Source of the DNA: an uncultured Gemmatimonadota bacterium
GTDB taxonomy: Bacteria; Blakebacterota; Blakebacteria; Blakebacterales; CAYUVJ01
NCBI GenBank assembly: GCA_964519015.1
Contig: CAZFHZ010000001.1
Location: forward strand, 5,476-69,475
Reading direction: 5' to 3'
Length of the DNA: 64,000 nt
The notes below the pieces were generated by a model. It was given only the letters and a program-made list of their open reading frames with translations. It had not been told where the DNA came from and ran no database searches. Positions 14,848 through 48,290 of this stretch are shown here, in pieces (positions within the stretch are counted from its first letter, which is position 1; every line of letters begins with the position of its first letter). Position numbers and translations under genes: made by a program.

Positions 14848-14957
14848 ATCCGCAGCCCGGATAGGAGAGTGTGGCAAATATCACAAGTTCTGCCGGCCAT
14901 CCACCCGTTTTCTACACCTGTGCCTCAACGACGTGCGAGAGGCAAGGAGGCTACTCT

Positions 14958-15911
14958 ATGTCCCGGATCTCCCGGCGGGAGTTCATGGACTGGATCGGAC
15001 GGGCGGGCACATCCGCTGCCCTGCTGGAGGTGCTGCCGCCCGGCATCCTGGAAGCGCTCCAGCAGGCGGTCAAACAGTACCCCCTCATCTGGCTCCAGCT
15101 CTCAAACTGTTCCGGCTGCTCGGTGTCGGCCATCAATACGATCCACCCCAACATCGAGAACGTGCTGCTCGACCAGATCATCCCCAACTACCAGCTCTCG
15201 CTCCGCTTCCAGCAGACCGTGATGTCGGCCTCCGGGGAACTCGCCATGCAGGCCCTCGACGAGACGCACCAGGAATGGAAGGGGAAGTACATCCTCATCG
15301 CCGAGGGAGCCGTTCCGACCAAGGAAAACGGCATCTTCGGACACATGGGGGAAAGTCAGGGGCGTCCGAGGACGCTGGCGGCGCACGTCCGGGAGCTAGC
15401 TCCGGACGCGCTGGCCATCCTGGCGCTCGGCACCTGTGCCTCCTACGGCGGTATCTCCGCCGCGGCACCCAACACAACCGGCTGCGTCGGGGTCGGGGCC
15501 TTTCTCGCCCAGGAGGGCATCACCACACCGTTGATCAACATCCCCGGCTGTCCCGCCCACCCCGACTGGTTCATCGGCACGGTCGCCCACGTTCTTCTGC
15601 TGGGTCTGCCCAAACCCGAGGAGGTCGACCAGCACGGCCGCTTGAAGCTCTTCTACGGATCAACCGTCCACCGGGCGTGCACCAACCGCGACTACATGGA
15701 CGAAGGGATCATGGCCCAGAAGCCCGGCCAGATCGGCTGCCTGCTGGAACTGGGCTGCAAGGGTCCCTTCACCATGGCGGACTGCCCCCGGCGTTCCTGG
15801 AACTCGGGGGTGAACTGGTGCATCGGCTCAGGTGGCCCCTGCCTGGGCTGCACCGAACCGGGATTCCCGGACGAGTTCTGCCCCTTCCTTACGATCAAGC
15901 AGGAGAACTGA
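14958..15911 (+). CDS. [NiFe]-hydrogenase small subunit with a twin-arginine signal, of the soluble periplasmic type (no C-terminal membrane anchor).
   Basis: A Tat motif ISRREFMDWIGRAG sits in the N-terminus. The proximal cluster block is PLIWLQLSNCSGCSVS. C-terminal Cys/His ligand sets are HRAC...C...C and C..GPC. An RBS AGGAGG precedes the ATG at 14958. Confidence 0.9.
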   Translation: MSRISRREFMDWIGRAGTSAALLEVLPPGILEALQQAVKQYPLIWLQLSNCSGCSVSAINTIHPNIENVLLDQIIPNYQLSLRFQQTVMSASGELAMQALDETHQEWKGKYILIAEGAVPTKENGIFGHMGESQGRPRTLAAHVRELAPDALAILALGTCASYGGISAAAPNTTGCVGVGAFLAQEGITTPLINIPGCPAHPDWFIGTVAHVLLLGLPKPEEVDQHGRLKLFYGSTVHRACTNRDYMDEGIMAQKPGQIGCLLELGCKGPFTMADCPRRSWNSGVNWCIGSGGPCLGCTEPGFPDEFCPFLTIKQEN

Positions 15912-15914
15912 GCG

Positions 15915-17405
15915 ATGCCAGCTCCCGTAACCATCAGACTGGATCCGATCACCCGGATCGAAGGACACCTGAGCGTCGAAAGCGTGGTGGACGAGGGAGA
16001 GGTGAAGGAAGCCCACGTCTCGGGCACCCTCTTCCGCGGCTTCGAGAACATGATCCTCGGACACTCGCCGCTCGACGTCATCCAGTTCGCTCAGAGATTC
16101 TGCGGGGTCTGCCCCACCGCCCACGCCATCGCCAGCGCCCAGGCGCTGGACATGGCTCTGGGGATCGTGCCGACCGAGAACGGCCGGGTCATCCGGAACC
16201 TGGTCGGCGGCGCCAACTGGATACAGTCGCACCTGCTCCACTTCTACACGCTCTCGGCCCTCGACTACTTCCCCGGTCCCTACACCCCCCCGTTCATCCC
16301 GCGCTTCGAGGGGGACTACCGGCTCCCCAAGGCCCTCAACGATGATCTTCTCAATCACTACATCCTGGCCCTCTCCATGAGGTTGAAAGCGCACGAACTC
16401 TCGGCGGTCTTCTCCGGGAAGATGCCCCACAGCGCCTCCATCGTCCCCGGCGGCGTCACCATCCAGCCGACGGTGGACAAGGTGACCACCTTCCTGTGGC
16501 GGCTGCGGGAACTGCGCGACTTCATCGACAACTACTACCTGCCCGATGTCATCGCGGTCGCCCGCGTGTACCAGGACATGCTCGAGCAGGGGCGGGGGCC
16601 GGACCGTCTTCTCACCTACGGTTCGTACGACCTCAATACTGAAGCGGACGTGACCCACCGCCGGCGGCTGCTTCAGATGGGCCGCCTGGTCAGCGGACGG
16701 GTGGAGAGCTTCGACCCGGCCAAGATCACCGAGGAGGTCCGGAACAGCTGGTACACCGACTCGGGACCCCGCTCTCCCCGGGAAGGGAGAACGGTCCCCA
16801 TGACGGGCAAGTCGGGCGCCTACAGCTGGGTGAAGGCCCCCCGCTACGAAGGAGAGGTCTACGAGGTCGGCCCGACGGCACGGGTGCTCTGCACCGCGCT
16901 CTCCGGAGAGAGCCCGGCCATGACGGCCATCACCGACCATGTCCTCTCGGAACTCCGGGCCGTCCCCGAGGTATTCCATTCCACCATGGGGCGGCATCTC
17001 GCCCGGGCCATCGAGACGAAATTCGTGGCCGACGCCATGAGCGAATGGATCATGGAGTTCCGGCTGGGCGAGCCGGTCTGCGCCGACTTCAAGATCCCGG
17101 ACCAGGCCTCCGGTATGGGCCTGTGGTGCGCACCGCGGGGAGCACTGGGACACTGGCTCGACATCGAGGAGGGGAAGGTGAGCCGCTACCAGGCGATCGT
17201 GCCGACCACCTGGAATTGTTCCCCCCGCGACGACCAAGGGACGCCCGGTCCGCTGGAGCAGGCGCTGGTGGGAACGCCGGTCAAGGACACCGACAATCCC
17301 ATCGAGGTGCTCCGGGTGGTCCACTCGTTCGATCCCTGCGTCGCCTGCGCGATCCACGTGCTGGACGCCCGGCGGAACGAGCGCCTGGCCTTCCGGGCCT
17401 GCTGA
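15915..17405 (+). CDS. [NiFe]-hydrogenase large subunit, group 1 by L1/L2 motifs.
   Basis: The N-terminal motif is QRFCGVCPTAHAIASAQALD. The C-terminal motif LRVVHSFDPCVACAIH is followed by a 15-aa cleavable extension VLDARRNERLAFRAC. The gene starts 4 nt after the small subunit stop and is preceded by AGGAGA. Confidence 0.9.
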   Translation: MPAPVTIRLDPITRIEGHLSVESVVDEGEVKEAHVSGTLFRGFENMILGHSPLDVIQFAQRFCGVCPTAHAIASAQALDMALGIVPTENGRVIRNLVGGANWIQSHLLHFYTLSALDYFPGPYTPPFIPRFEGDYRLPKALNDDLLNHYILALSMRLKAHELSAVFSGKMPHSASIVPGGVTIQPTVDKVTTFLWRLRELRDFIDNYYLPDVIAVARVYQDMLEQGRGPDRLLTYGSYDLNTEADVTHRRRLLQMGRLVSGRVESFDPAKITEEVRNSWYTDSGPRSPREGRTVPMTGKSGAYSWVKAPRYEGEVYEVGPTARVLCTALSGESPAMTAITDHVLSELRAVPEVFHSTMGRHLARAIETKFVADAMSEWIMEFRLGEPVCADFKIPDQASGMGLWCAPRGALGHWLDIEEGKVSRYQAIVPTTWNCSPRDDQGTPGPLEQALVGTPVKDTDNPIEVLRVVHSFDPCVACAIHVLDARRNERLAFRAC

Positions 17406-17439
17406 GGGAGAAACGGCCGGCGGCCGGGAGCGGGGGGAC

Positions 17440-17910
17440 TCACTCCTCCTGCAGCCGGCGGGCCTCCTCGCGGGCGGCCTGCAGCAGGGCCGGGAGGGCG
17501 CCGGAGACGGGCCGGCTGAGCCGCGACCGGCCCGTCGCGAGCCGGTCCGGCTCCACACCCAGGAGCACCCCGCGCAGGGGACGTCCCAGCAGGCGCGCCT
17601 GCTGCAGCAGGTGGCGCACGCCCAGTTCGTGCACCGAGAGGGGGACCCCGACGGGGTCGCCGATCTCCTCCAGCGGGAGGCGGTGGATCGTACCGGGCGG
17701 GCTCCCGGCCCGGACGGCGTCCAGGAGCACCACCTTCTCCTCCGGTTCCAGGAAGGCCAGCAGGTCGACGCCGAGCGTCCCGGCCTCGAGCAGACGCACC
17801 CCCGGCGGCAGGCCTCCTTCGTCTCTGAGCCCCTCCACGGCCAGCACCCCGACAGCGTCGTCGCCGCCCAGCAGCTGGCCGATCCCGACGACGGCTACCG
17901 ATCTCGGCAT
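17440..17910 (-). CDS. Hydrogenase maturation endopeptidase (HyaD/HybD family), convergent to the structural genes.
   Basis: The start is MPRSVAVVGIGQLLGGDDAVGV..., which resembles the HybD N-terminus. The protein is ~156 aa. Confidence 0.7.
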   Translation of the reverse strand: MPRSVAVVGIGQLLGGDDAVGVLAVEGLRDEGGLPPGVRLLEAGTLGVDLLAFLEPEEKVVLLDAVRAGSPPGTIHRLPLEEIGDPVGVPLSVHELGVRHLLQQARLLGRPLRGVLLGVEPDRLATGRSRLSRPVSGALPALLQAAREEARRLQEE

Positions 17911-18086
17911 CTGCTGCGGGTCAGGCATGCGAAGCCATCCGGGCAGGAGCCCTCTGCTAATGCTGACTCGGTGAACGCGCCACCTCGATCCCGGCATGCA
18001 TGGGAGGGAGGATAACCCCCGGGGGGGACGCCGTCGCCCCTCAGATCAAGCTGCAGATCGCTCAACTCCTGTTCAGAGAGGCGATG

Positions 18087-19161: not shown

Positions 19162-20544
19162 TCAGGTCCCTGGTCTTAATCCTCTGAGGTAGGCCAGGTA
19201 CCCGCTGTTGAGCGCCTTCCACTTCCGGATGATGGCCTTGGCCTGGAGCTTGACGAAAGCGCTCTCCAGGGAAGGGACCCGGAAGCCCGACAGCAGTGAG
19301 GTGGTCACCCCGCGGGCCGTCTCGAAGACGATGTTGAGGGAGTCGTTCATGACCGCGACCAGGGAGTAGAAGTCCTGGAAGGCCTGCAGCGTCCCCTCCT
19401 GGAGTTCGGAGGGGGTGAAGTTGAGAGGACGGTACACGGCGTGCATGCCGTCGTAGAAGCTCCACATCCGGTGGAGGAGCCGGCCCTCCTTTTCCATCCG
19501 CTTGAAGAACCCGGTCCCCGGCAGGGGGGTCAGGATCATGAACTGGACCGAGCTGAGACGGCTCTTCCGGCAGAAGGCGGCGGTCTCGCGGAAGAGGGCG
19601 GCGTCTTCCTCGTCGCTGCCGAAGATGAACATGCCGTGGATGCTGATCTGATGGGCGTGGAAGACCTCGATCGCCGCCCGGACGTCCTCGGGGGACTGCC
19701 GCTTGTTCATCCCCTCCAGGGTGGCGGGATCGATCGATTCGAAGCCGATGTAGACCCGCAGGCAGCCGGAGCGGCGCATCTTGGCGACCAGTTCGCGGTC
19801 GCGGGTGATATCGGCCCGCACCTGGGCCGTCCACTTGAGTCCCATCTTCCGCCGGATCATCTCGTCCAGCAGGGCGTGGGTCCGCTTCGGGTTGGCCGCG
19901 AAGTTGTCGTCGTAGAAGAAGATCTGGCGGGTCGGGGCCCGCTCCAGGTCCTCGAGCACCCGGGCCGGCGAATGGGTCCGGTAGCCGCGTCCGAACATCT
20001 CGGTCACCGCGCAGAAGTTACAGTCGTAGGGGCAGCCTCGTGAGGTGACCACCGGCGTGATGTTGAGCCGCTCCCGGCCCAGCAGGAGACCGAAGTCGGG
20101 GCTGGGGACCACGTCCAGGTCGCGCAGCCGGGGCCCGGCGACCACCCGCTCGCCGCCGTGCCGGAGCAGGTCGACGATCACCTGCTCCCCTTCCCCGACC
20201 ACCACGTGGTCGGCGCACTCGGCCGCCTCCTCGGGCAGGAAGGAGGGATGGATGCCCCCGATGACGATCTTCCGCCCGGGATACAGGTCGCGGAAGGTAC
20301 GGGCGATTTCGTAGCCTCGCTCGGCGGTCGGGGTGAGCAGACTGAGCAGCAGGAAATCGGTGTCGAGCTCGGCCAGGGTGACGTCGCGGTGCAGCAGGTT
20401 CTCATTGATGATCCGCACCTCGAAACCCGCCTGCTGGAGGATCGTGCCCAGGTAGAGCGGACCCATGAGGGGGAGGTGGAGGTAGTCGGCGAAGACGTTG
20501 GCCTTGACGCCGCGCGGTTCGACGATGAGCACTCGTTTCTTCAT
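19162..20544 (-). CDS. B12-binding-domain radical SAM protein.
   Basis: An N-terminal B12-binding-like domain is followed by the radical SAM CxxxCxxC motif in TSRGCPYDCNFCAV. The gene ends 4 nt before the downstream lipoprotein start. Confidence 0.85.
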   Translation of the reverse strand: MKKRVLIVEPRGVKANVFADYLHLPLMGPLYLGTILQQAGFEVRIINENLLHRDVTLAELDTDFLLLSLLTPTAERGYEIARTFRDLYPGRKIVIGGIHPSFLPEEAAECADHVVVGEGEQVIVDLLRHGGERVVAGPRLRDLDVVPSPDFGLLLGRERLNITPVVTSRGCPYDCNFCAVTEMFGRGYRTHSPARVLEDLERAPTRQIFFYDDNFAANPKRTHALLDEMIRRKMGLKWTAQVRADITRDRELVAKMRRSGCLRVYIGFESIDPATLEGMNKRQSPEDVRAAIEVFHAHQISIHGMFIFGSDEEDAALFRETAAFCRKSRLSSVQFMILTPLPGTGFFKRMEKEGRLLHRMWSFYDGMHAVYRPLNFTPSELQEGTLQAFQDFYSLVAVMNDSLNIVFETARGVTTSLLSGFRVPSLESAFVKLQAKAIIRKWKALNSGYLAYLRGLRPGT

Positions 20545-21026: not shown

Positions 21027-21199
21027 CGCTCTATTCCTCGGGGGGGCTCCTCGGGAACCCTACCCCCGCCCCGGCAGGGTGTCAAATCCACCAACGGGTC
21101 CCGTTGACCCCCCCCCGGGCGTTCGCTACCTTGCCGTCCGGCCGCGCGGGCCTGTCCCGCCGAGCCCGCATCCACGCACCAGCAAGGAGCCGCGCCCCG

Positions 21200-22393
21200 A
21201 TGGCCCAACGCACCATCGTCGCGATGCCGGGAGACGGCATCGGCAAGATCGTCCTGGCCGAGGCCATCCGTGTCCTGGACGCGGTCGGATTCGACGCCGA
21301 ATACGTCCATGGCGATATCGGCTGGGAGTTCTGGTGCCACGAGGGAGATGCCCTCCCCGAACGCACCATCGAGCTACTCAGGCAGCACAAGATCGGACTC
21401 TTCGGCGCCATCACCTCGAAACCGAAGGACGAGGCGGACGCCGAGCTCGATCCCGCTCTGAAGGGGAAGGGGTATGTCTACTACAGCCCGATCGTGGGAC
21501 TGAGGCAGGTCTTCGACCTGGACGTCTCGGTCCGCCCCTGCATCTCCTTTCCCGGAAACCCGCTCAACTTCGTGCGGCGGAGCCGGGATGGTTCGATCGA
21601 GGAGCCTTTCGTCAACGCGGTCATCTTCCGCCAGAACACCGAAGGGCTCTACAGCGGGGTGGAGTGGACCGACCCGCCGCCGGCCGTACGGGCCGCCCTG
21701 GAAAGCCACCCCAAGTTCAAGCCCTTCCGGGAAGTCCCCGGACCCGACCTGGCCGTCTCCACCCGTATCTTCAGCCGGGGCGCCTGCCGCCGGATTGTCG
21801 AGGCCGCCTTCGCCTATGCCCGCGAGTTCGGCTACCGTTCGGTGACCGTGTGCGAGAAGCCCAACGTGATCCGCGAGACCAGCGGGATGATGGTCAAGGA
21901 GGCCCGCCGGGTCGCCCAGCGCTATCCCGGCATCGCCCTCTGGGAGACCAACATCGACGCCCAGACGATGTGGCTGACCAAGAACCCGGAGGACTACGGA
22001 GTGATCGTGGCCGGCAACATGTTCGGCGACATCATCTCGGACGCCTTCGCCGGCCTGGTCGGCGGGCTTGGCTTCGCCGCCTCCTCGAACGAGGGGCAGG
22101 AAGTGGCGGTGTTCGAACCGACCCACGGCTCGGCCCCCAAGTACGCCGAGCTGGAGCCCAGCATCGTCAACCCGATCGCCATGTTCCTGTCGGCCGCCCT
22201 GATGCTCGACCGGCTCGGGGAGCGGGAGAAGGCCGACCGGGTGCGCCGGGCCATCGCCAGGGTGGTGAAGGAAGGGCGGGTCCGGACCTACGATATGATG
22301 AAGATCGCCGGGGGACCGAAAGCGATCGCACAGGGGGCGGCTTCGACCGAACAGATGACCGAGGCCGTGATCGCGGCCCTGGGCCGCGACTGA
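21200..22393 (+). CDS. Isocitrate/isopropylmalate dehydrogenase family protein (beta-decarboxylating dehydrogenase).
   Basis: The start MAQRTIVAMPGDGIGKIV is preceded by AAGGAG. Family blocks include LRQVFDLDVSVRP and GNMFGDIISDAFAGLVGGLG. Confidence 0.85.
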   Translation: MAQRTIVAMPGDGIGKIVLAEAIRVLDAVGFDAEYVHGDIGWEFWCHEGDALPERTIELLRQHKIGLFGAITSKPKDEADAELDPALKGKGYVYYSPIVGLRQVFDLDVSVRPCISFPGNPLNFVRRSRDGSIEEPFVNAVIFRQNTEGLYSGVEWTDPPPAVRAALESHPKFKPFREVPGPDLAVSTRIFSRGACRRIVEAAFAYAREFGYRSVTVCEKPNVIRETSGMMVKEARRVAQRYPGIALWETNIDAQTMWLTKNPEDYGVIVAGNMFGDIISDAFAGLVGGLGFAASSNEGQEVAVFEPTHGSAPKYAELEPSIVNPIAMFLSAALMLDRLGEREKADRVRRAIARVVKEGRVRTYDMMKIAGGPKAIAQGAASTEQMTEAVIAALGRD

Positions 22394-22424: not shown

Positions 22425-23003
22425 ATGATCGATGCCGCGAGGGTGCAGGAGCGCTTCGCCGACCTGCTGGAGATGATCGGGGACGAGCGTCTGCGCGGGC
22501 AGGTCGTGGAGGCGTGGCTGCTCGCCTGTGCCGAAGGGGGCTGGACCGACCTCGAACAGGTCGAGCGGATGCCCTTCTCCCTGCTGACCGACTGCGGCGG
22601 TCTGGGCTTTTTGGAGCACACCGAGGCGGTCACCCGCGGGGCGCTCGGACTGGCCCAGGCCCAGGTGGACGCCTACGAGGAGATGCCCTACCGGATCAAC
22701 TTCGACCGGTTGATCGCCGGGGGCCTGCTCCACGACGTGGGCAAGCTGCTGGAGATCGAACCGGACGGCACTGGGGGCTACCGGATGAGCCGGCACGGAC
22801 GCTCCACCCGCCACCCGATCAGCGGCACGGTGATCGCCGCGAGGGTCGGCCTGCCGGTGGAGGTCCAGAACATCATCGCCTGTCATTCCAAGGAAGGAGA
22901 GGGTCAACCGCGCACGGTCGAGACGATCCTGATCCACCAGGCCGACTTCGCCACCTTCGACCCCTTCACGATGCGGGCCGCGGGCAGGCTGATCGAGGAC
23001 TGA
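22425..23003 (+). CDS. HD-domain (HDIG-type) metal-dependent phosphohydrolase.
   Basis: The HD motif LLHDVGK is present. Downstream His/Asp ligands are IIACHSKEG and HQAD. Confidence 0.7.
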   Translation: MIDAARVQERFADLLEMIGDERLRGQVVEAWLLACAEGGWTDLEQVERMPFSLLTDCGGLGFLEHTEAVTRGALGLAQAQVDAYEEMPYRINFDRLIAGGLLHDVGKLLEIEPDGTGGYRMSRHGRSTRHPISGTVIAARVGLPVEVQNIIACHSKEGEGQPRTVETILIHQADFATFDPFTMRAAGRLIED

Positions 23004-23007
23004 GCGC

Positions 23008-24837
23008 GTGGGCCGGACCCTGATCGAGCAGATCATCGCCGCCCATACCGGCGATGCGGTCGCCCCCGGGGCCACCGTGGAGATGCGGGTGGACCTGCGG
23101 GCGGCCCGCGACTTCGGCGGCGCCAACGTGATCGGGCACCTGGAGGAGCACGGCCTGGGGGTGGCCGACCCCGGACGGACCCTCTTCACCTTCGACTGCA
23201 ATCCGACCGGCTCCGACCAGGGGTACGCGGCCAACCAGCACCGCTGCCGGCTCTTCGCCCGCCGCCACGGCCTGAGGGTCTACGACATCGACCGGGGGAT
23301 CGGCACCCACCTGGTCATCGAGGAGGGGCTGGTCGGCCCGGGGGAGACCTTCGTCTCCACCGACTCCCATGCCAACATCCTGGGGGCGGTCGGCGCCTTC
23401 GGGCAGGGGATGGGGGACCTCGATATCGCCAGTGCCTTCGCCCGCGGTTCGGTCTGGTTCCAGGTCCCCGAGACCGTGCACGTGCACCTGACCGGCGTCC
23501 CTTCGGCCACTGCTACCGCCAAGGACCTGACCCTGGCGCTGGTGCGCCACTTCGGCGCCAAGGGGTTGCTCGGTTGTGCGGTCGAGGTGACCGGGGAGGC
23601 GATCCAGGCACTCGACCTGGCCGGACGCCTCACCCTGGCCTCGATGGCCACCGAGATGGGCGCCATCATCCTCTTCCCCGAGCCCTCGGAGCGGGTGGCG
23701 GCCGAGTACACCCGCCTGACCGGCCGGGATCGGGAGTGGCCGTGGTCCGACCCGGATGCGACCCGGCAGCGGGAGGAGGTCGTGGACATCGACGGGCTGG
23801 AGCCGCTGGTCAGCCGCCCGGGCCGTCCCGAGGACGTGGTGGCGCTGGCCGGGCTGACCGGGACCCCGATCGATTCCGCCTTCCTCGGCTCCTGCACGAA
23901 CGGCCGGCTCGAGGACCTGGCGGCGGCCGCCCGGATCCTGCAGGACCGCCGGGTGGCCGAAGGGGTAGTGCTCAAAGTCGTCCCGGCCACCGACCGGGTC
24001 TGGATCGAGGCGCTGCGGGCCGGACTGCTCGGGATCTTCAAGGAGGCCGGAGCGCTGGTCTCGAACGCCGGCTGCGCAGGCTGCGCGGCCGGACAGGTCG
24101 GACAGACCGGACCCGACGAGACCACCGTCTCGAGCGGCAACCGCAACTTCCCCGGCAAGCAGGGTCTGGGCGAGGTCTTCCTGGCCTCCCCGGAGACGGT
24201 GGCCGCCTCGGCGGTCACCGGGATGCTCACTCCGGCCGATGGGATCGACCGGGCGCCCCCCCGTCCCCGGCGGCTGGTCGTGCTACCGGCAGCCCTCCCC
24301 GATCCGACCCGTCCGGCGGAAGCCCCCGCTCCGCCGCCGGCCGAAGAGCGCCCCACCCTCCTGGAGGGGCGTGTCTGGGTGCTCGACCGCGATTCGGTCG
24401 ACACCGACATGATCTTCCACAACCGGCACCTGGCCCTCACCGACCTCGCGGCCATGGGCCGGCACGCCCTGGGCAACATCCCGGGGTGGGAGGACTTCCC
24501 GGAGCGGGTCCGGCCGGGGGACTTCCTGGTCACCGGAGCCAACTTCGGGGCGGGTTCCAGCCGCCAGCAGGCGGTCGACTGCTTCCGGGCGCTCGGCCTG
24601 AGCGGGGTAATCGCCCCCTCCTTCGGAGCCATCTACGAACGGAACGCGATCAACGCGGGCTTCCCGGTGCTGCACGGTGAGTTGCGGGGGGTGTTGCAGG
24701 AGGGGGAGCGCATCCGGGTGGACCTGGAGACGGGTGCCGGGCAGCGGCTCGAGGAGGGGACCGACTTCCAGGTCGCACCCCTGTCCCCGGTGCCGTTGCG
24801 TATCTACCGGCGCGGCGGCCTGCTGGCCGGGCACTGA
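23008..24837 (+). CDS. Aconitase-family hydro-lyase, LeuC-like large domain fused to LeuD-like small domain through a Pro/Ala-rich linker.
   Basis: The GTG start is at 23008. LeuC-type Fe-S ligands are GSCTNGR and NAGCAGCAAGQ. The linker APPRPRRLVVLPAALPDPTRPAEAPAPPPA leads into a LeuD-like swivel domain (GANFGAGSSRQQAVDCFRALG). Confidence 0.85.
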   Translation: MGRTLIEQIIAAHTGDAVAPGATVEMRVDLRAARDFGGANVIGHLEEHGLGVADPGRTLFTFDCNPTGSDQGYAANQHRCRLFARRHGLRVYDIDRGIGTHLVIEEGLVGPGETFVSTDSHANILGAVGAFGQGMGDLDIASAFARGSVWFQVPETVHVHLTGVPSATATAKDLTLALVRHFGAKGLLGCAVEVTGEAIQALDLAGRLTLASMATEMGAIILFPEPSERVAAEYTRLTGRDREWPWSDPDATRQREEVVDIDGLEPLVSRPGRPEDVVALAGLTGTPIDSAFLGSCTNGRLEDLAAAARILQDRRVAEGVVLKVVPATDRVWIEALRAGLLGIFKEAGALVSNAGCAGCAAGQVGQTGPDETTVSSGNRNFPGKQGLGEVFLASPETVAASAVTGMLTPADGIDRAPPRPRRLVVLPAALPDPTRPAEAPAPPPAEERPTLLEGRVWVLDRDSVDTDMIFHNRHLALTDLAAMGRHALGNIPGWEDFPERVRPGDFLVTGANFGAGSSRQQAVDCFRALGLSGVIAPSFGAIYERNAINAGFPVLHGELRGVLQEGERIRVDLETGAGQRLEEGTDFQVAPLSPVPLRIYRRGGLLAGH

Positions 24838-24851
24838 GGGAGGAGAGAAGC

Positions 24852-26132
24852 GTGGGCACCTTCGCCCAGAACGTGCTGGCCTACGCCGCCGGGCTCGAGA
24901 GCGTGAGCATCGGGCAGATCGTGACGGTGCATCCCCGCCGCCTTCTCACCCACGACAACACGGCCGCCATCATCGAAAAGATCGCCCCGGAACTGGAACG
25001 GTACGGGGTGGCCGACCCCGACCAGCCGGTCATCGTGCTCGACCACGTGGTCCCGGCGGTGGACACCACCACCGCCGACGGACACCGGCGCATCCGCGCG
25101 TTCGTGGCCCGTCACGCTCTGGTGCACTTCTACGATGTCGGCGAGGGGATCTGCCACCAGATCGTGCTGGAACGGGGGCTGGCGTTGCCCGGCCAGGTGA
25201 TCGTGGGGAGCGATTCCCACACCTGCTCCTACGGTGCGGTGGGGACCTTTGCCACCGGCATCGACCGGACCGAGGCGGCCGCCCTGCTGCTGACCGGGGA
25301 GACCTGGCTGCGGGTGCCCGCCTCGATCCGGGTGGTCATGAGCGGGCGGCTTCCGGCCCTGACCTCCGCCAAGGACCTGGTGCTCAGCCTGATCGGCCGG
25401 CTGGGGGCCGACGGGGCCGCCTACCGGAGTGTCGAGTTCCATGGCGAAGTGTCCGCCCTCAGCCTCGAGGAGCGGATCACGATCGCCAACATGGGGGTGG
25501 AGATGGGGGCCAAGACGGCCGTCTTCCCGGTCGATGAGCAGACCCGGGCCTTCCTGGAGTTGGCCGCCCCCGACTGGGACGGCCAGGGGGCGGTCTGGGC
25601 GGACCCGGATGCGGAATACGAGCAGGAGATCCCCCTCGATCTCTCCGCACTGGAACCGGTGGTCGCCCGTCCCGGTGCGGTGGACGCGGTGGTGCCGGTG
25701 GGCGCGGCGGCCGGGGTGCGGGTCCACCAGGTCCTGCTGGGCACCTGCACGAACGGACGGTTGAGCGACCTGCGGGAGGCGGCCGCCCTGCTGGCCGGCC
25801 GGAAGATCCACCCCGGGGTGCGGCTGCTGGTCACCCCGGCCAGCCGCCGGGTCTTCGATGCCGCCCTGGCCGACGGTACCATCGCCGAGTTGAGCCGGGC
25901 AGGGGCGACCATCCTGCCGGCCGGCTGCGGCCCCTGCCTGGGCGCCCATCTGGGTATCCTGGCCCCGGGGGAAGTCTGCCTCTCCACCTCCAACCGCAAC
26001 TTCAAGGGACGGATGGGCACCCCCGACTCCGAGATCTATCTGGGCAGCCCGCTCACGGCCGCCGCCAGCGCCCTGACCGGGGTGATCACCGACCCGCGGG
26101 AGGTGGCGGCCGTCGGAGGAGGAGCCCGATGA
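24852..26132 (+). CDS. Aconitase-family hydro-lyase large subunit (LeuC-like), stand-alone.
   Basis: Family blocks are GSDSHT, LGTCTNGR and LPAGCGPCLG. The GTG start is at 24852. Confidence 0.85.
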   Translation: MGTFAQNVLAYAAGLESVSIGQIVTVHPRRLLTHDNTAAIIEKIAPELERYGVADPDQPVIVLDHVVPAVDTTTADGHRRIRAFVARHALVHFYDVGEGICHQIVLERGLALPGQVIVGSDSHTCSYGAVGTFATGIDRTEAAALLLTGETWLRVPASIRVVMSGRLPALTSAKDLVLSLIGRLGADGAAYRSVEFHGEVSALSLEERITIANMGVEMGAKTAVFPVDEQTRAFLELAAPDWDGQGAVWADPDAEYEQEIPLDLSALEPVVARPGAVDAVVPVGAAAGVRVHQVLLGTCTNGRLSDLREAAALLAGRKIHPGVRLLVTPASRRVFDAALADGTIAELSRAGATILPAGCGPCLGAHLGILAPGEVCLSTSNRNFKGRMGTPDSEIYLGSPLTAAASALTGVITDPREVAAVGGGAR

Positions 26133-26650
26133 GGGTCTGGCGCTACGGTGACGACGTGAACACCGACCAGCTCTTCCCGGGCAAGTACACCTACACCTGC
26201 AGCCGGCCCGAGGAGATCGTCCCCCACCTGCTGGAGGACCTCGATCCCGCCTTCGCCGCCGGGGTGACGCCGGGCGATGTGGTGCTGGCCGGGCGCAACT
26301 TCGGCTGCGGATCCAGCCGGGAGCAACCGGCGGTGGGCCTGCGGACGGCCGGGATCGCCGCGGTGGTGGCCGTCTCGTTCGCCCGCATCTTCTACCGGGC
26401 GGCCATCAACCAGGGACTGCTGCTGGTCGAGTCCCCCGAGGCGGTCGCCGCCTGGCGGGAGGGGGAGGAGATCCAGCTCGACCCGGCGGCCGGCCGGATC
26501 ATGGTGGGCGGGCGCACCTTCCTCATCCCCCCCCTCCCCCCCCTGCTCCTCCAGATCCAGGAGGCCGGGGGGCTGCTTCCCGCCGTACGCCGCCGCCTGG
26601 CCGCCCGAGACGCTGAACCGGGAACCCGGTTTCAGGAGGAGACCCGATGA
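26129..26650 (+). CDS. Aconitase-family hydro-lyase small subunit (LeuD-like).
   Basis: The block AGRNFGCGSSREQP is present. The gene overlaps the upstream LeuC-like gene by ATGA. Confidence 0.8.
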   Translation: MRVWRYGDDVNTDQLFPGKYTYTCSRPEEIVPHLLEDLDPAFAAGVTPGDVVLAGRNFGCGSSREQPAVGLRTAGIAAVVAVSFARIFYRAAINQGLLLVESPEAVAAWREGEEIQLDPAAGRIMVGGRTFLIPPLPPLLLQIQEAGGLLPAVRRRLAARDAEPGTRFQEETR

Positions 26651-27927
26651 GTCCCCGAACGCAGGAGCGGAAGCGGAACGGACCGGCCGCGGCCGAAGCA
26701 GGCCACCGGGGTCCCGAGGTGCGGAGCGACTGCTGGGTGCGGGTCGATCCGGCCGGCCCGTCCGGGCTGGCGATCACCAGCAAGGTGGCCGACCTCTACG
26801 GGACCAGCCTCCGGGAATTGCTCGAGGCCGGCGTGCACGGGCTCGGTCTGGAAGAGGCGGCGGTGACCGTGGAGGACCAGGGGGCCCTCCCCTGGGTGAT
26901 CCTCGCCCGTCTGGAGGCGGCCGCCCGGGCGGCCTGCCCGGACCTGACGGCCCGACTGGAACCCCCCGGTCCACCGGTGGTCCGACGACCGGTACGGGAT
27001 CGACTGCGCCGCTCCCGGCTCTACCTGCCGGGGAACACGCCGAAGTTCATGCTCAACGCCGCCCGGCATGTGCCCGACGGCGTGATCCTGGATCTGGAGG
27101 ACTCGGTCGCCCCTCCCCGCAAGGCCGAGGCCCGTCTGCTGGTCCGTAACGCCCTGCGCTGCGGCGAGTGGGGGGAGTGCGAGTTGATGGTGCGGATCAA
27201 CCAGCTCCCGGCCGGGTTGGAGGACCTGGCCGAGATCCTCCCCGAGAGTCCCGAGGTGATCCTGATACCCAAGGTGGAGGACCCCGGTCAGGTGGTCGAA
27301 GTGGAGCGGGCCTGCACCTCGCTGCTGCGGGGTCGGGAGGTGCCGCCGCCGCTGCTCATGCCGATCGTGGAGAGCGCCCGGGGTGTCCTTCAGGCCTTCC
27401 CGATCGCCTCGGCCAGCCCGCAAGTGGTCGCTCTGACCATCGGACTGGAGGACTATACCGCCGACCTGGGTGTGGAACGCACCGTAGAGGGACGTGAGTC
27501 GTTCTGGGCCCGGGCCATGCTGGTCACCGCTGCCCGGGCCGCGGGCGTCCAGCCGATCGACACCGTCTTCAGTGACGTCGAGGACCTGGTCGGGCTCGAG
27601 GCCGCCGTGCTTGAGGCGAAGGGGCTGGGTTTCGTGGGCAAGGGGTGCATCCATCCCCGCCAGATCCCGACCGTCCACAATGCCTTCGCCCCCACCTCCG
27701 GGGAGATCGAGAAGGCCACCGCCATCGTGGCCGCGTACGAACAGGCCCGCGTGCGTGGAGACGGGGTGGTCGCCCTGGGGAGCAAGATGATCGATCCCCC
27801 GGTGGTGGAGCGGGCGCTGCAGACAGTCGAAGCGGCCTTGCGGCTCGACCTGCTTGACCCCGACTGGCGCGAGCAGGAGCCCCCTCCCCCAGCTACGACC
27901 GCCCCCCCCTCCGAGGGGGGGGAGTAG
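26647..27927 (+). CDS. Citrate-lyase-like acyl-carrier (gamma, CitD) fused to beta subunit (CitE, HpcH/HpaI aldolase fold).
   Basis: The N-terminal ~95 aa align to CitD (EVRSDCWVRVDP ~ E. coli ESGDVMIRI, with the prosthetic-group Ser conserved; DQGALPWVILARLEAA ~ DDKGALDCILRARLEAL). The remainder carries CitE/HpcH blocks (SRLYLPGNTPKFM, DLEDSV, GKGCIHPRQI). Confidence 0.75.
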   Translation: MSPRTQERKRNGPAAAEAGHRGPEVRSDCWVRVDPAGPSGLAITSKVADLYGTSLRELLEAGVHGLGLEEAAVTVEDQGALPWVILARLEAAARAACPDLTARLEPPGPPVVRRPVRDRLRRSRLYLPGNTPKFMLNAARHVPDGVILDLEDSVAPPRKAEARLLVRNALRCGEWGECELMVRINQLPAGLEDLAEILPESPEVILIPKVEDPGQVVEVERACTSLLRGREVPPPLLMPIVESARGVLQAFPIASASPQVVALTIGLEDYTADLGVERTVEGRESFWARAMLVTAARAAGVQPIDTVFSDVEDLVGLEAAVLEAKGLGFVGKGCIHPRQIPTVHNAFAPTSGEIEKATAIVAAYEQARVRGDGVVALGSKMIDPPVVERALQTVEAALRLDLLDPDWREQEPPPPATTAPPSEGGE

Positions 27928-27949
27928 GCCCAGAAAGGACGGCCGCGTC

Positions 27950-29512
27950 ATGCCGGAACCGGGCATACCTCGGGTCACGAACGCCTCGGGCCGACCGGTC
28001 CCCGAACGGGTCAACGGGGTCCCCCAGGTCCCCTTCGCCGGAGTCGGCGTCCATCGGCCCGACGGGCGGAAGGTCGCCCCCCCCATCCGTTCCTGCGCCG
28101 ACTATCCCCCCGACGGGGACAAACGGCTCCCTTCCCTGAAGGCCGCCCTGGAAGCGTGCGGGGTGGAAGACGGGATGACCATCAGCACCCACCACCACCT
28201 GCGCGACGGCGACCAGGTGGCGGTCGCCCTCTTCGACGCGGCGGCCGAGATGGGACTGCGCGAGCTGGTCTGGTTCCCCAGCGCCGCCTTCCCCTGTCAC
28301 GCCCCCCTCATCCGCCATCTCGACTCGGGGGTCATCCATCACATCGAGGGGAGCCTGAACGGCCCGCTCGGGGAATACTGCTCGCGGGGGCGGATGAAGG
28401 GCACCCACATCCTCCGCTCCCACGGTGGGCGCTGGCAGGCCATCCAGGACGGCGAGGTGCACATCGACCTGGCCGTGATCGCCGCACCCAACGCCGACCC
28501 CTTCGGGAACGCCAACGGGCTGGAGGGTCCCGCCGCAACCGGAGGACTCGGCTTCGCCCTGGCCGACTCCCGCTTCGCCGACCGGGTCGTGGTGGTCACC
28601 GACCACCTGGTGCCCTTCCCCGCCGTCCCCTGGCAGATCCAGGGTAACGATGTCGACTTCGTGGTCGTGGTGCCCAGCCTGGGGGACGCCTCGAAGATCG
28701 TCTCGGGGACCACCCGAATCACCCGCAGCCCCGACCGCATGCTGATCGCCGAGCTGGCCGCCCGCTTCACCGCCGAAGCGGGTATCCTGCGCGACGGTTT
28801 CTCCTTCCAGGCGGGCGCGGGGGGGACCGCCCTGGCCTACGCCCTCTACCTGAAGGAGATGATGAAGCGGGCCGGGGTGAAGGCGCGCTTCATCCGCGGC
28901 GGGACCACCCGCTATCTGGTGGAGATGCTCGAGGAGGGATTGACCGACTACCTGCTCGACGGTCAGACCTTCGACCTGGACGCGGTACGCTCCATGGGAC
29001 GCAACCCCGGTCACGTCATGACCAGTCCCTTCACCTCCTACAATTACCACGGCAAGGGGAACTTCGCCTCGCTGGTGGACGTGGTCGTGCTGGGGGCCAC
29101 CGAGGTCGACCTGGCCTTCAACGGCAACGTGGTGACCCACTCCGACGGGCGGCTCCTCCACGGCATCGGCGGCTGGCAGAACTGCCTGTTCGGCCGGTGT
29201 GTCATCCTGGCCGTGCCGGCGGTGCGCGACCGCATCCCGGTGATCGTGGACGAGGTGACCACCCTGTGCGGGCCGGGGGAGCTCATCGATGTGGTGGTGA
29301 CCGAGCGCGGGATCGCCGTCAATCCCCGCCGCGGCGACCTGCTCGAGGCGGTGAAGGGTTCCCCCCTGCCGATCCGGCCGCTGGAGGAGATCAAGGCCGA
29401 GCTCGACCGGGTCTGCGGGGTGCCGGAGAGGCCCTCCCGGAGCGGGGAGGTTGTTTCGGTGGTCAAGTGGGTCGACGGCACCCTCCTCGACTGCATCCAC
29501 CGGGTGGACTGA
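27950..29512 (+). CDS. citF: Citrate lyase alpha subunit (citrate CoA-transferase, CitF family).
   Basis: The ~520-aa protein starts at MPEPGIPRV. Its length and blocks are CitF-like (HHHLRDGD, GTTRITRSPDRMLIAELAA). Confidence 0.8.
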   Translation: MPEPGIPRVTNASGRPVPERVNGVPQVPFAGVGVHRPDGRKVAPPIRSCADYPPDGDKRLPSLKAALEACGVEDGMTISTHHHLRDGDQVAVALFDAAAEMGLRELVWFPSAAFPCHAPLIRHLDSGVIHHIEGSLNGPLGEYCSRGRMKGTHILRSHGGRWQAIQDGEVHIDLAVIAAPNADPFGNANGLEGPAATGGLGFALADSRFADRVVVVTDHLVPFPAVPWQIQGNDVDFVVVVPSLGDASKIVSGTTRITRSPDRMLIAELAARFTAEAGILRDGFSFQAGAGGTALAYALYLKEMMKRAGVKARFIRGGTTRYLVEMLEEGLTDYLLDGQTFDLDAVRSMGRNPGHVMTSPFTSYNYHGKGNFASLVDVVVLGATEVDLAFNGNVVTHSDGRLLHGIGGWQNCLFGRCVILAVPAVRDRIPVIVDEVTTLCGPGELIDVVVTERGIAVNPRRGDLLEAVKGSPLPIRPLEEIKAELDRVCGVPERPSRSGEVVSVVKWVDGTLLDCIHRVD

Positions 29513-29670: not shown

Positions 29671-30804
29671 TCACCGGGGAGTGACGGGTATGGACGGCGG
29701 GAGGGGCAGGACCATGGTGGGATGGGCTGGGCTGAGCATATACCCCTTGGTCCGATCCGATCCGATCTTCATCGGGGGGGTGTGGGCTTTCAGGGTGTTG
29801 CTCATGGGTGCCCAGGAGAAGACCACGATGCCCAGCACCTCGTGGGGGGGCGAACCCTGGTTGGAGGCGACCAGCGCGTCGAAGAAGATCCGGTCGCCGC
29901 TCTGGGTGGGCCACCACAAGCAGCCGATCGGGAAGGCGTGCCGGACCGGGGAGGTCTCCTCCCCGGGATGGGTCGGACCGGTGAGCGGGCTGCCCACCAA
30001 CTCGTAGCCCATCGCGCTCAGGTCGGCGAGAAAAGCCGCTTGTTCACGGACGTGATCGAACCGGCCGACCGAACCGTCGGCGATGTAGTAGCTGGTGAAA
30101 TCGCCCGGCACGAAAACCTGCGAACTGTCCGGGCTGAAGACCGCATAGGTGGGCAGTTCGGTAGTGGTGATGGGGAGCTGCTCGGCCCCCGAGCCGTCCG
30201 GATGCGCCCGCCAGAGCTGGGCGTCCGCTCCCGTGGTCCCGGTGACCTTGGCGAAGAGGACCCAGCTCCCCCCCTGCGTGAAAGCGGGGGTCCAGTAGGA
30301 GAGGGAAGCGGAGGCGTCGCTGGTGATCATCGTGGGGGAGCCCTCCGGACCCGTCTGCACGATGATGTTATAGCCATCCGTGTCCGAACCGTCCATGTAG
30401 GCGAAACGCAGCTTGTGGGAGGGATCGATGGCGGGCGCCATCTGGTAGGTCCCCACCCCGATCACGTCGGTGAACTCGAGCAGGACGGTGTGCATGAAGG
30501 TGAGCTTGTCGTAGCCGAAGATGATGTGGTAGTGGTAGTTGGTGTCGAGGGTGAGGGTCGGTCCGAAGTAGTCGTTGTCCCCCCGGCGGTAGCCGTACCG
30601 CGTGCTGTTGGTGGACGGTACAAAGAGGGTGTAGAGTCCCAACATCTGCTCGGGGTCCTCGGTCAGGTGCCCGCTTATCAGGATGCGTCCGGCCACCAGC
30701 ACGTTCGAGCGGTAGTAGACGTCGTTCGGTCCGACGGTGTCGCAGCCACTGCCCAACAGCAGGACGAAGGAGAATGGGACCAGACACATTGAGCGCAAAC
30801 GCCG
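29671..30804 (-). CDS. Hypothetical lipoprotein (moderately low GC).
   Basis: The signal plus lipobox is MRRLRSMCLVPFSFVLLLGSGC. I recognised no catalytic motifs. An SPDSS/HPDGSG beta-propeller-like segment is present. Confidence 0.45.
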   Translation of the reverse strand, partial: RRLRSMCLVPFSFVLLLGSGCDTVGPNDVYYRSNVLVAGRILISGHLTEDPEQMLGLYTLFVPSTNSTRYGYRRGDNDYFGPTLTLDTNYHYHIIFGYDKLTFMHTVLLEFTDVIGVGTYQMAPAIDPSHKLRFAYMDGSDTDGYNIIVQTGPEGSPTMITSDASASLSYWTPAFTQGGSWVLFAKVTGTTGADAQLWRAHPDGSGAEQLPITTTELPTYAVFSPDSSQVFVPGDFTSYYIADGSVGRFDHVREQAAFLADLSAMGYELVGSPLTGPTHPGEETSPVRHAFPIGCLWWPTQSGDRIFFDALVASNQGSPPHEVLGIVVFSWAPMSNTLKAHTPPMKIGSDRTKGYMLSPAHPTMVLPLPPSIPVTPR

Positions 30805-31012
30805 CATTACAGTATCCCTCACGCTAAGAGGCTCAGGTCGCCTGCCGGTCCGGAGAGGATAATAGATTTCCCGAAGTTCGGGAAGTCCTCCTCACTCTTG
30901 AAGAGGGCCCGGTGCTCGGTCGCTACTACCGTCACCCCCGCGGATTCCTTCTAGTGTCCCGAGTCGGAAATCGGACTTCCGGCAGACGACCCTTGACGTC
31001 CTCATTGTACTA

Positions 31013-36911: not shown

Positions 36912-37760
36912 ATGCAGCATATGCGAAAAGTCCCAGCCGAGCGACTCACCGAAGCGGTCCGCGAGATCTCCGTGACCGCCAACTACGACCTGCCCGAGGA
37001 TGTGATGAAGGCGCTGGAGGACGCCCGGGGGACCGAGGTCTCGCCGGTCGGACTCGAGATCCTCGACCAGATCATCGAGAACGCGAAGATCGCCGCCGCC
37101 GACCGGGTCCCGATCTGTCAGGATACCGGGTTCGCGGTCATCTACCTGGAGATCGGGACCGAGGTCTGCATCGAAGGGGATGTGATCGCCGCGATCAACG
37201 AGGGGGTGCGTCAGGGGTACCAGGAGGGCTACCTCCGTAAATCGATCGTAAGCGACCCCCTGCGCCGCACCAACACCGGGGACAACACCCCGGCCGCGAT
37301 CAGCGTGGATTTCGTGCCCGGGGACAAGGTCACCGTCACGATCGCCCCCAAGGGCGGGGGGAGCGAGAACATGAGCGAGGCGCGCCTCTACGCCCCGGCG
37401 GCCGGCCGGGAGGGGGTGGTCAACTTCGTGGTCGACCGGGTCGCCCGCTCGGGTTCCAACCCCTGCCCTCCGGTCATCGTCGGAGTCGGCATCGGCGGGA
37501 CCTTCGACCTGTGCGCGAAGATCGCCAAGAAGGCGCTGCTCAAGGAGGTCGGTGAGCGGCACCCCGACCCCTACTACGCCGAGATGGAGCTGGAGATCCT
37601 GGAGAAGGTCAACAAGCTGGGGATCGGACCCCAGGGCCTGGGCGGCCGGACCACGGCGCTCGACGTCCACATCGAGGTCCATCCCTGTCACATCGCGAGC
37701 CTGCCGGTGGCGGTGAACATGCAGTGTCACGCCGCCCGCCACAAGAGCATGGTCATCTGA
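36912..37760 (+). CDS. Class-I (Fe-S) fumarate hydratase / tartrate dehydratase alpha subunit.
   Basis: Family blocks are VPICQDTGFAVIYLEIG, GGGSENMS and GPQGLGG. Confidence 0.8.
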   Translation: MQHMRKVPAERLTEAVREISVTANYDLPEDVMKALEDARGTEVSPVGLEILDQIIENAKIAAADRVPICQDTGFAVIYLEIGTEVCIEGDVIAAINEGVRQGYQEGYLRKSIVSDPLRRTNTGDNTPAAISVDFVPGDKVTVTIAPKGGGSENMSEARLYAPAAGREGVVNFVVDRVARSGSNPCPPVIVGVGIGGTFDLCAKIAKKALLKEVGERHPDPYYAEMELEILEKVNKLGIGPQGLGGRTTALDVHIEVHPCHIASLPVAVNMQCHAARHKSMVI

Positions 37761-37779
37761 GGACCCGGAGGGAACGAAC

Positions 37780-38337
37780 ATGGAAGAGCGCAAGCGTGTC
37801 CAGCTCCCCCTGACGGCTGAGGCCGTCACCGACCTGAAGGCGGGTGACCGGGTGTTCCTCAGCGGTCCCATGCTCACGGGCCGGGACGCCGCCCACAAGC
37901 GACTGGTGGAACTGGTCGACAAAGGGGAGTCCCTGCCGGTCGAGTTGACCGGCCAGACCATCTATTTCGTCGGCCCCTCCCCGGCCAAACCCGACCAGGT
38001 GATCGGCTCCTGCGGCCCGACCACCTCCTACCGGATGGACCCTTACAGCCCGAAGCTGATCGCGCTGGGCCTGCGGGGGATGGTCGGCAAGGGGGAGCGA
38101 GGCCCCGAGGTGGTGGCGGCGATGAAGCAGTACGGGGCGGTCTACTTCGCGGCGGTGGGCGGGGCGGCCGCCCTCATCGCCCGCAGCGTGAAATCGACCG
38201 AGGTGGTCGCCTACGAGGATCTGGGGCCGGAGGCGATCCGGCTCATGGAGGTGGAGGACTTCCCGGTCATCGTGGCCCAGGACGCCCACGGTGGCAACCT
38301 CTACCGGGAAGGGGTGGAGCAGTACGCAATCGGGTGA
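37780..38337 (+). CDS. Class-I fumarate hydratase / tartrate dehydratase beta subunit.
   Basis: Family blocks are LSGPMLTGRDAAHKRL, IYFVGPSPAKP and YGAVYFAAVGGAAAL. Confidence 0.8.
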   Translation: MEERKRVQLPLTAEAVTDLKAGDRVFLSGPMLTGRDAAHKRLVELVDKGESLPVELTGQTIYFVGPSPAKPDQVIGSCGPTTSYRMDPYSPKLIALGLRGMVGKGERGPEVVAAMKQYGAVYFAAVGGAAALIARSVKSTEVVAYEDLGPEAIRLMEVEDFPVIVAQDAHGGNLYREGVEQYAIG

Positions 38338-38368
38338 GGGGACGCCCTCCAGACATAGGGGTATAGCC

Positions 38369-44933: not shown

Positions 44934-46049
44934 CCGGGGGGTGGTCCTCCTCCGGGCTCGTTCCTCCCACGGGCGGATCATCGAGACGAAGAGGTCCACC
45001 AGTTCGGGATCGAAGTTGCTCCCCTTCCCTTTGAGCAGGATGTCGATGATGACGTCGGGCGGGAGCGGGTCCTGGAAGGGACGTTTGGTCCGCATCGCAT
45101 CGTAGGCATCGCACAGATGCACGAGCTGGCTGACCCGGTGGGGGGGACGCTTGAACTTCAGGTCGGGATAGCCACCCCCGTCCCAGCGCAGGTGGTGTTC
45201 GTAGGCGGCCACCGCGGCGACTTCCAATCCCTGCCCGGAGTCGAGCAGGATGCGGGCGCCTTCGGCCGGGTGCCGTATGATCTCCTGCCACTCCCGGTCG
45301 TCCAGTTTCCCCGGCTTGTTGAGGATATCCTGGGACACCACCACCTTGCCCACATCGTGGAGCAGGGCGGCCTCACCCACCACGCGTACCTCGGGACCGG
45401 AGAGGTGCATGAACTCCCCCAGGGCGATGGCCAGTACCGAGGTGTTCATGGAGTGGACGGTGGTGTACTGATCGGTCTGCTTGAGGGGGACCAGGGGGAG
45501 GAAGAGCTTACTCTCCCGGCGCATGGCCGAGGTGAGCGTATCCACTACCGAGCGGGCCACCTCGACCGTGATCCGCCCGCGCCGCTTGGCTTCTTCGTGG
45601 AACTCCTCGACTTTGCCGAGTTCACGCCCGGCCTCGAAGGAGGTCTCATTCTGGTCGGTGCCGAGCAGCCCGAACTGGATGTGCCGGAAGCGCATGGGGT
45701 CGAGCGGATCCACCGTACGACCGGCGGTGGTCCGGACCGCCACAATCTCGAGGAAATCATCGAACTCACGGCGGGACAGTCCCACGGTGAACTCCATGCG
45801 CTCGACTCCGGCCTGGATGAAGCGGCGGGCCGGCGCCCATCCTTTCATCTCACGCAGGGGGGCATCACCGTAGACCACCTCGCCCTCCAGGAAGCTGAAC
45901 CGGACGTGCCGGTCCACCTCCAACAGGGCGGAGAGCAGTTGGAAAGCCTCACCGAGCGGCCGCTCACGGGCCGGGTGTCCGGAAGCATAGAGTCCCATCG
46001 CCGAGAAGGCCTGACCGAGGGCGGTGAGAAGCCGGACCGGGGAACTCAC
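44928..46049 (-). CDS. HD-GYP domain protein, putative cyclic-di-GMP phosphodiesterase.
   Basis: The HD block is AALLHDVGK. The GYP signature is HHLRWDGGGYPD. Confidence 0.85.
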   Translation of the reverse strand: MSSPVRLLTALGQAFSAMGLYASGHPARERPLGEAFQLLSALLEVDRHVRFSFLEGEVVYGDAPLREMKGWAPARRFIQAGVERMEFTVGLSRREFDDFLEIVAVRTTAGRTVDPLDPMRFRHIQFGLLGTDQNETSFEAGRELGKVEEFHEEAKRRGRITVEVARSVVDTLTSAMRRESKLFLPLVPLKQTDQYTTVHSMNTSVLAIALGEFMHLSGPEVRVVGEAALLHDVGKVVVSQDILNKPGKLDDREWQEIIRHPAEGARILLDSGQGLEVAAVAAYEHHLRWDGGGYPDLKFKRPPHRVSQLVHLCDAYDAMRTKRPFQDPLPPDVIIDILLKGKGSNFDPELVDLFVSMIRPWEERARRRTTPRS

Positions 46050-48064: not shown

Positions 48065-48290
48065 GCGCCGCGGGTGGCCGGTCGCCGCGGAGCCGGGTGT
48101 GGTGGTCGTTCCTGCCACGGTGGTCGCTCGGCCGGACCGGGCACAATCTGTTTATAGTGCTCTCCTCCGACGGAGCGCAAACAGGACTCCGAAGCGTCCC
48201 CACCCTCCCGGGTGTCCCCGCCCGTCGGGGACCCGAATATCTTATACCCAGAGGACTCTGCGATTCAGAGCAATAGCCGGGAGGGACGCG

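Follow-up and report, generated by a model that had tools for sequence, protein, structure and literature searches.

The gene citDE, at positions 26647..27927 (+ strand) of a 64-kb stretch of DNA from an uncultured Gemmatimonadota bacterium (64,000 nucleotides, hereafter the window), probably encodes a subunit of an ATP-independent citrate lyase of the CitDEF type in which beta and gamma are fused, and the genes for its maturation presumably lie elsewhere in the genome. The gene is one uninterrupted frame of 426 aa, its GC3 of 0.87 is similar to that of the adjacent genes, and its ATG shares bases with the stop TGA of the gene before it (ATGA) and lies 5 nt after a Shine-Dalgarno-like AGGAGGAG (26635..26642, + strand). 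The only homopolymer tracts in citDE are a C8 and a G8, both at the 3' end and past the CitE domain. A long antisense ORF (26632-28086) has the codon-position GC of a shadow frame.

Pfam places an acyl-carrier family (PF06857, aa 27-95, 50.7 bits, E 2.2e-13, gathering cut-off 25.1) and the HpcH_HpaI family (PF03328, aa 122-337, 158 bits, E 2.4e-46) on the same protein. With the single frame, this bears out the in-frame fusion of CitD to CitE that the earlier note had proposed, and the CitD similarity that it had seen in the N-terminal region is significant by HMM. The top NCBIfam models are likewise citE and citD, each under its equivalog cut-off (TIGR01588 citE, 240.2 vs 443.4 bits; TIGR01608 citD, 42 vs 63.5 bits; NF009726, 42.7 vs 65 bits). 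An AF2 model of the protein (pLDDT 89, pTM 0.86) separates the two domains by a Pro-rich linker without regular secondary structure (aa 97-118, 26935..27000, + strand; columns 101-145 of alignment A1), which varies in length among homologues and is conserved in position.

The carrier domain is of CitD/MdcC type (aa ~14-96, 26686..26934, + strand) and adopts a beta-beta-beta-alpha-beta-alpha fold over aa 16-96 in the AF2 model. An HMM built from five canonical CitD/MdcC sequences matched the fused ORFs of 88 sources, and a sequence search of the domain against the PDB gave no match at E up to 10. Against 1.84 billion representative proteins the domain had 250 matches; because the short ones inspected were mostly truncated or frameshifted fusions, these give no clean count of stand-alone carriers. 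The codons for Arg26-Ser27-Asp28 (26722..26730, + strand) stand out in the alignment of fused sequences, with Arg-Ser-Asp invariant in all 205 full-length members and followed by Cys in 202 and by Ala in 3. The motif of the fused family is RSDC[WYF], and that of canonical carriers is ES[GS]D or GSG[DN]. Gapless phmmer, HMM and MAFFT alignments all pair Asp28 with E. coli Asp16, so that Arg26 falls on the modified Ser14 and Ser27 on Gly15. The earlier note had aligned the serine with the modified serine of CitD; an invariant serine is indeed present, but offset downstream by one residue from the canonical site, in the same loop, which directly precedes strand 29-34 in the AF2 model. Since Arg-Ser-Asp is invariant across the 205 sequences, Ser27 is the presumed candidate for the attachment site of the prosthetic group and, by analogy with CitD, may bear phosphoribosyl-dephospho-CoA. 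We also considered Cys29 as an acyl-carrying thiol that would need no prosthetic group, an idea weakened by the three sequences with Ala at this position and by the invariance of Ser27.

The remainder of the protein is a CitE-type acyl-thioester lyase TIM barrel (aa 119-400, 27001..27846, + strand) with the HpcH/CitE fold and family match. Residues R183, E242 and D269 do not vary among 18 fused sequences and also occur in E. coli CitE (alignment A1). Matched by motif, not by structural superposition, they correspond to the Arg, Glu and Asp of M. tuberculosis CitE (1Z6K) that bind oxaloacetate and Mg2+. Both this domain and CitF have 38-40% identity to the E. coli and Enterococcus subunits (39-40% for CitF).

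CitF, an alpha subunit of the citrate:acetyl-ACP transferase type, is encoded 22 nt downstream of citDE (27950..29512, + strand), its start probably being ATG 27950 and not TTG 27854. It is identified by PF04223 (433 bits), by TIGR01584 (474.8 bits, slightly below the cut-off of 501.45) and by a match to the PDB entries 2hj0 and 1xr4, putative CitF structures, at E 1e-115. Because citF adjoins citDE here and accompanies the fusion at 75 of 86 loci, the system predicted from these genes is an alpha plus fused beta-gamma complex of citrate-lyase type. Hence, the single-polypeptide ACP-lyase variant suggested in the earlier note stands as a distinct CitD-CitE subfamily with no citC, citX or citG nearby, but not as a self-sufficient enzyme, given the adjacent CitF.

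In canonical citrate lyase an acetyl group is held on the carrier thiol, CitF carries out the acyl exchange and CitE the cleavage. By the same scheme, a thiol prosthetic group linked to Ser27 of the N-terminal carrier domain would hold an acetyl thioester, CitF would swap this acetyl for citrate or a close analogue with release of acetate, and the CitE domain of the same chain would cleave the resulting citryl-S-carrier to oxaloacetate (or the matching 2-oxo acid) and regenerate the acetyl-S-carrier. The fusion would thereby keep the carrier attached to one of the two catalytic units that it serves, and maturation would fall to enzymes with genes in other parts of the genome. Several observations run against the citrate-lyase reading: the NCBIfam equivalog scores (citE 240 vs 443, citD 42 vs 63.5, citF 475 vs 501), the displacement of the serine by one from the ES[GS]D site, the failure to find citC, citX, citG or mdcG beside any of 88 fused loci, an operon dehydrogenase without Asn115, and two sets of isomerases, which plain interconversion of citrate and isocitrate does not need.

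The two lyase genes end a tight operon of seven genes, which overlap by up to 4 nt or stand up to 31 nt apart; a scan for the operon's promoter and terminator was uninformative. The first gene encodes an isocitrate/homoisocitrate-dehydrogenase-like protein (21104..22393, + strand, PF00180; the true start is likely an ATG at about 21200). It is followed by genes for a small HD/HDIG hydrolase of 192 aa (22425..23003, + strand, PF01966), a hydro-lyase of 609 aa in which the large and small aconitase-family parts are fused (23008..24837, + strand; PF00330 and PF00694, with NCBIfam support), a LeuC/HacA-type large subunit (24852..26132, + strand; above cut-off on both NF001614, 510.9 bits, and TIGR01343, 490 bits) and a LeuD/HacB-type small subunit (26129..26650, + strand; TIGR02087, 160 bits, above cut-off), whose stop is the one that overlaps the citDE start. 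The nearest PDB entries to the dehydrogenase-like protein are an NAD-IDH and Thermus HICDH, and its top NCBIfam models are homoisocitrate dehydrogenases. Like E. coli IDH, it has the catalytic Arg, Tyr, Lys and Asp, Ser113 and the determinants for NADP. Asn115 of the E. coli enzyme binds the gamma-carboxylate of isocitrate; here the equivalent position is an invariant Ile, the position of Thermus HICDH Arg85 is a Val, and an 18-aa insertion lies ahead of the Asn115-equivalent loop.

Judged by gene content, the most likely role of the operon is to connect a 2-oxo acid (for example 2-oxoglutarate) with acetate and oxaloacetate by way of isocitrate and citrate. The flow would run from 2-oxoglutarate, CO2 and NADPH to isocitrate, on to citrate, and then to acetate and oxaloacetate, and together with glutamate dehydrogenase it would amount to a redox-neutral fermentation of glutamate. 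Genes for S46, M1 and M20 peptidases and a large GDH were seen beside several fused loci. Operons of the window's type recur in Gemmatimonadota, Acidobacteriota, WOR-3, Calditrichota, Myxococcota and Fimbriimonadales. Ignavibacteria (including Ignavibacterium album), Melioribacter, Bacteroidota and Planctomycetota have a PrpD-family dehydratase in place of the LeuCD-like pair, an M20 peptidase gene precedes citDE-citF in Krumholzibacteria, Eisenbacteria and Fibrobacteres, and at more than 20 loci citDE-citF occurs with none of the other operon genes.

The operon also allows the same chemistry on a different physiological substrate, an analogue of citrate (homocitrate, 2-isopropylmalate or citramalate, for example), which we regard as less likely but as the main alternative. 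The genes would then form a 'reverse 2-oxo-acid elongation' operon, in which a 2-oxo acid is reductively carboxylated, isomerised and cleaved by the lyase to acetate and a shorter 2-oxo acid. The Ile and Val of the dehydrogenase resemble the Leu-Leu of LeuB and its insertion is unique, its best NCBIfam models point the same way, the large and small isomerase subunits (AcnL and AcnS) pass archaeal LeuCD/HacAB subfamily cut-offs, and a second isomerase is always added, either the LeuCD-like pair or, in the Ignavibacteria-type operon, PrpD; the lyase subunits, moreover, stay below the citrate-lyase equivalog cut-offs. However, citE, citD and citF remain their top models, the dehydrogenase still has Ser113 and the determinants for NADP, and PrpD-family enzymes are known for tricarboxylates. 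In the literature we found no such lyase acting on homocitrate or isopropylmalate. Many loci have CitDE-CitF without a dedicated isomerase or dehydrogenase, as would fit a central metabolite as the substrate.

Pfam found no CitC, CitX or CitG among the 47 genes called in the window, and six-frame phmmer and HMM searches agree, so that the earlier note's observation that the window lacks maturation genes holds. We extended the search to the window plus 87 other fused loci, with about 1.3 Mb of flanking DNA in total and at least 5 kb on both sides at 48 of the 88 loci. The first queries were E. coli CitG, CitX and CitC, and the second were profiles of CitG/MdcB (five sequences), CitX (three), CitC (two) and MdcG (two). 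In the flanks of these 88 loci, six-frame phmmer and HMM searches detected no CitG/MdcB, CitX, CitC or MdcG above noise. The positive control was the E. coli CitG query, which recovered CitG/MdcB from Firmicutes and from alpha- and beta-proteobacterial replicons at E values of 1e-14 to 1e-40, and at the canonical control loci of E. coli and Enterococcus citC, citX and citG lie within 5 kb of citD. As far as the flanks of the fused type go, the difference from the canonical locus in maturation genes is thus real.

It is nevertheless improbable that the fused carrier is matured without CitG/CitX (or MdcB/MdcG) and CitC, or that it bears a different thiol cofactor. Absence of these genes from the flanks, the working CitG control and canonical locus order, and the change of motif to RSDC[WYF] with its serine shifted by +1 from ES[GS]D speak for such a route. 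However, the search covered flanks, not whole genomes, and in some bacteria maturation genes lie away from citDEF, as does citX in Klebsiella. The HD protein, the sole conserved unknown of the operon, offers little help to such a route. It is present at 34 of 86 fused loci and missing from many others, its 1,737 homologues have about 60% identity, and one at 58% identity occurs in an archaeal locus beside GAPDH without cit genes. Its AF2 model (pLDDT 93) matches generic HD hydrolases only, with YhaM best at a TM of 0.66, and gave no AcpH-like match. Because of the archaeal occurrence, the many fused loci with full flanks that lack it and the generic fold, we do not regard it as a maturation enzyme and reject it as the missing holo-carrier synthase or phosphodiesterase.

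Substrate and maturation could also depart from the canonical type together, with CitDE-CitF acting as the terminal C-C lyase of a widespread 'reverse 2-oxo-acid elongation' operon on a citrate analogue and the carrier being loaded without CitG/CitX. We give this combination a small chance. The operon so understood comprises an NADP dehydrogenase with the Asn115-to-Ile change, the HD hydrolase, and LeuCD/HacAB-like or PrpD dehydratases.

Far less credible is a carrier domain that survives as a structural relic while CitF and the CitE domain use free acetyl-CoA and citryl-CoA. The lack of maturation genes in the flanks would suit it, and the nearest solved relatives of the CitE domain are lyases of free CoA esters, such as malyl-CoA lyase and CLYBL. 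However, the carrier domain is strongly conserved, with an invariant RSD and at least 15 invariant positions across phyla, and is kept in all of more than 200 homologues.

The fused architecture is common. All 120 of the best homologues among 5.8 billion proteins combine the ACP and HpcH domains, under JGI and NCBI labels such as citrate lyase beta, aldolase/citrate lyase family and citrate lyase ACP. When one genome per GTDB species was scanned, relatives appeared in at least 582 species-level genomes, and the carrier region is present in all of the best 80 of them (80/80). The hosts of these best 80 relatives include Gemmatimonadota, Acidobacteriota, Planctomycetota, Ignavibacteria, Melioribacter, Bacteroidota and KSB1, as well as WOR-3, Krumholzibacteria, Eisenbacteria, Myxococcota and others. 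CitDE itself shares 93% identity with a metagenome protein and about 54-65% with proteins of named MAGs, and in a plasmid collection none of the 261 matching records spans the fused architecture. With the frame continuous, identical architecture in more than 200 independent assemblies and a linker conserved in position, we reject the idea that a sequencing frameshift, assembly artefact or missed stop between separate citD and citE created the fusion, the chance of which is negligible.

The earlier note overstated the novelty of the fusion, which is widespread, annotated by both NCBI and JGI, and was described in 2012, when IALB_1147 of I. album was reported as a CitE-CitD fusion adjoining CitF (Liu et al., PMC3362086). 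With its ACP and HpcH domains, RSD motif and downstream citF, CitDE has the features of the IALB_1147-type subfamily and is a further example of this known and widespread group. The same paper raises, as speculation, the possibility that I. album ferments citrate or runs a reverse TCA cycle of an unconventional kind (PMC3362086). In our literature search no paper on the biochemistry of the fused type came up, nor any statement on citX or citG for lineages with the fusion. Many phyla that have been little studied, among them Gemmatimonadota, Acidobacteriota, Ignavibacteria, Planctomycetota, KSB1 and WOR-3, seem to have the fused type as their main ATP-independent citrate lyase. In metabolic reconstructions this type is commonly taken as 'citrate lyase', at times in support of a reverse TCA cycle, and knowledge of its substrate and maturation would strengthen or overturn those reconstructions.

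Among described systems, I. album IALB_1147 with its CitF, IALB_1146, has the same two-domain architecture, the adjacent CitF and the RSDC motif of the window. An I. album locus (IsoDH-HD-Acn-PrpD-CitDE-CitF) resembles the window's operon, but the identity is about 54% and a PrpD-family dehydratase stands where the window has the LeuCD/HacAB-like pair. The canonical CitDEF of E. coli, Klebsiella and Enterococcus consists of the same three protein families and works by a two-step chemistry of acyl exchange and cleavage that is presumably common to the window's enzyme. In contrast, the window's CitD is fused to CitE and has its carrier serine shifted by one in a different motif. The canonical citCDEFXG locus also holds citC, citX and citG, which were not found in the window or the flanks of the 88 fused loci, and the canonical lyase sits with a citrate carrier and oxaloacetate decarboxylase, whereas the window's lies in a dehydrogenase/isomerase operon. 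Malonate decarboxylase has in MdcC a carrier of the same Pfam family (PF06857) as the window's carrier domain, but the partners here are CitE and CitF, and neither Mdc catalytic subunits nor MdcB/MdcG accompany them. The citramalate lyase of Clostridium tetanomorphum is homologous to citrate lyase, with three subunits and a carrier of the same kind. It is the same type of enzyme as the one predicted here, and the peptidase and glutamate dehydrogenase neighbours would be in keeping with a role in the fermentation of amino acids.

The gene that encodes the fused carrier and lyase of citrate lyase (citDE, 26647-27927, +) ends in a variable C-terminal tail, located 3' of the lyase domain, that holds a run of eight cytosines and one of eight guanines (window 27901-27925). 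Homopolymer runs of this kind are prone to sequencing slippage; the fusion itself is unaffected by the two runs of the tail. Elsewhere, Krumholzibacteria, Eisenbacteria and Fibrobacteres MAGs carry an M20 (PepD-like) peptidase gene directly upstream of the pair formed by citDE and the alpha subunit gene citF, where it replaces the dehydrogenase and aconitase genes (compared loci L004, L019, L020, L030, L032, L033, L043, L045, L072 and L081). A further unusual variant lies on plasmid p330 of Clostridium felsineum (L092, 5833-9581), where a CitE-like protein of 300 aa is encoded together with a 380-aa hypothetical protein, CitG, CitX and a carrier-like protein of 91 aa that bears an ASYD motif; CitF is absent from this locus.

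Approximately 3 kb upstream of the operon are genes for the small and large subunits of a NiFe hydrogenase (+) and a HycI-type maturation protease (-), together spanning 14871-17997, and a B12-binding radical SAM gene is found at 19162-20544 (-). Downstream, separate genes for the two subunits of a class I fumarate hydratase (alpha at 36912-37760, beta at 37780-38337) are followed by a peptidase S46 (whole set 36912-40534, +), and in another Gemmatimonadota locus (L005) an S46 peptidase lies immediately ahead of the same operon. A multihaem cytochrome c that combines MtrC/MtrF-like with Ig-like domains (55556-57253, -) adjoins ABC-2 transporter and RND efflux genes. Four ORFs of 240 to 690 aa in the window that are well supported by GC3 (390-1658, 29671-30822, 46046-48118 and 63264-63986, all -) matched none of the Pfam families with an E-value of 0.001 or lower.

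Within the operon, the 192-aa HD/HDIG protein (22425-23003, +) belongs to a strongly conserved family without a name (1737 matches, nearly always 191 aa); members from various bacterial phyla share approximately 60% identity with it, and an archaeal copy shares 58%. Its predicted fold is that of a generic HD hydrolase. In 34 loci the gene has the dehydrogenase gene on one side and the aconitase genes on the other, while the archaeal copy has GAPDH as a neighbour instead.

Two aconitase-family isomerase sets follow (23008-26650, +), namely a 609-aa protein that fuses the large and small subunits and a LeuCD/HacAB-like pair of separate subunits. Operons of the Ignavibacteria type have a PrpD/MmgE-family dehydratase in place of the split pair, and this swap suggests dehydration and hydration by two enzymes. 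The comparison covers the window and, among others, loci L037, L046, L051 from Ignavibacterium album, and L063. The isocitrate-dehydrogenase-like enzyme of the operon (21104-22393, +) may act on a substrate other than isocitrate. Its NADP determinants are IDH-type, an 18-aa insertion (KDEADAELDPALKGKGYVYY) precedes the substrate loop, the position of HICDH Arg85 is Val, and that of E. coli Icd Asn115 is an invariant Ile.
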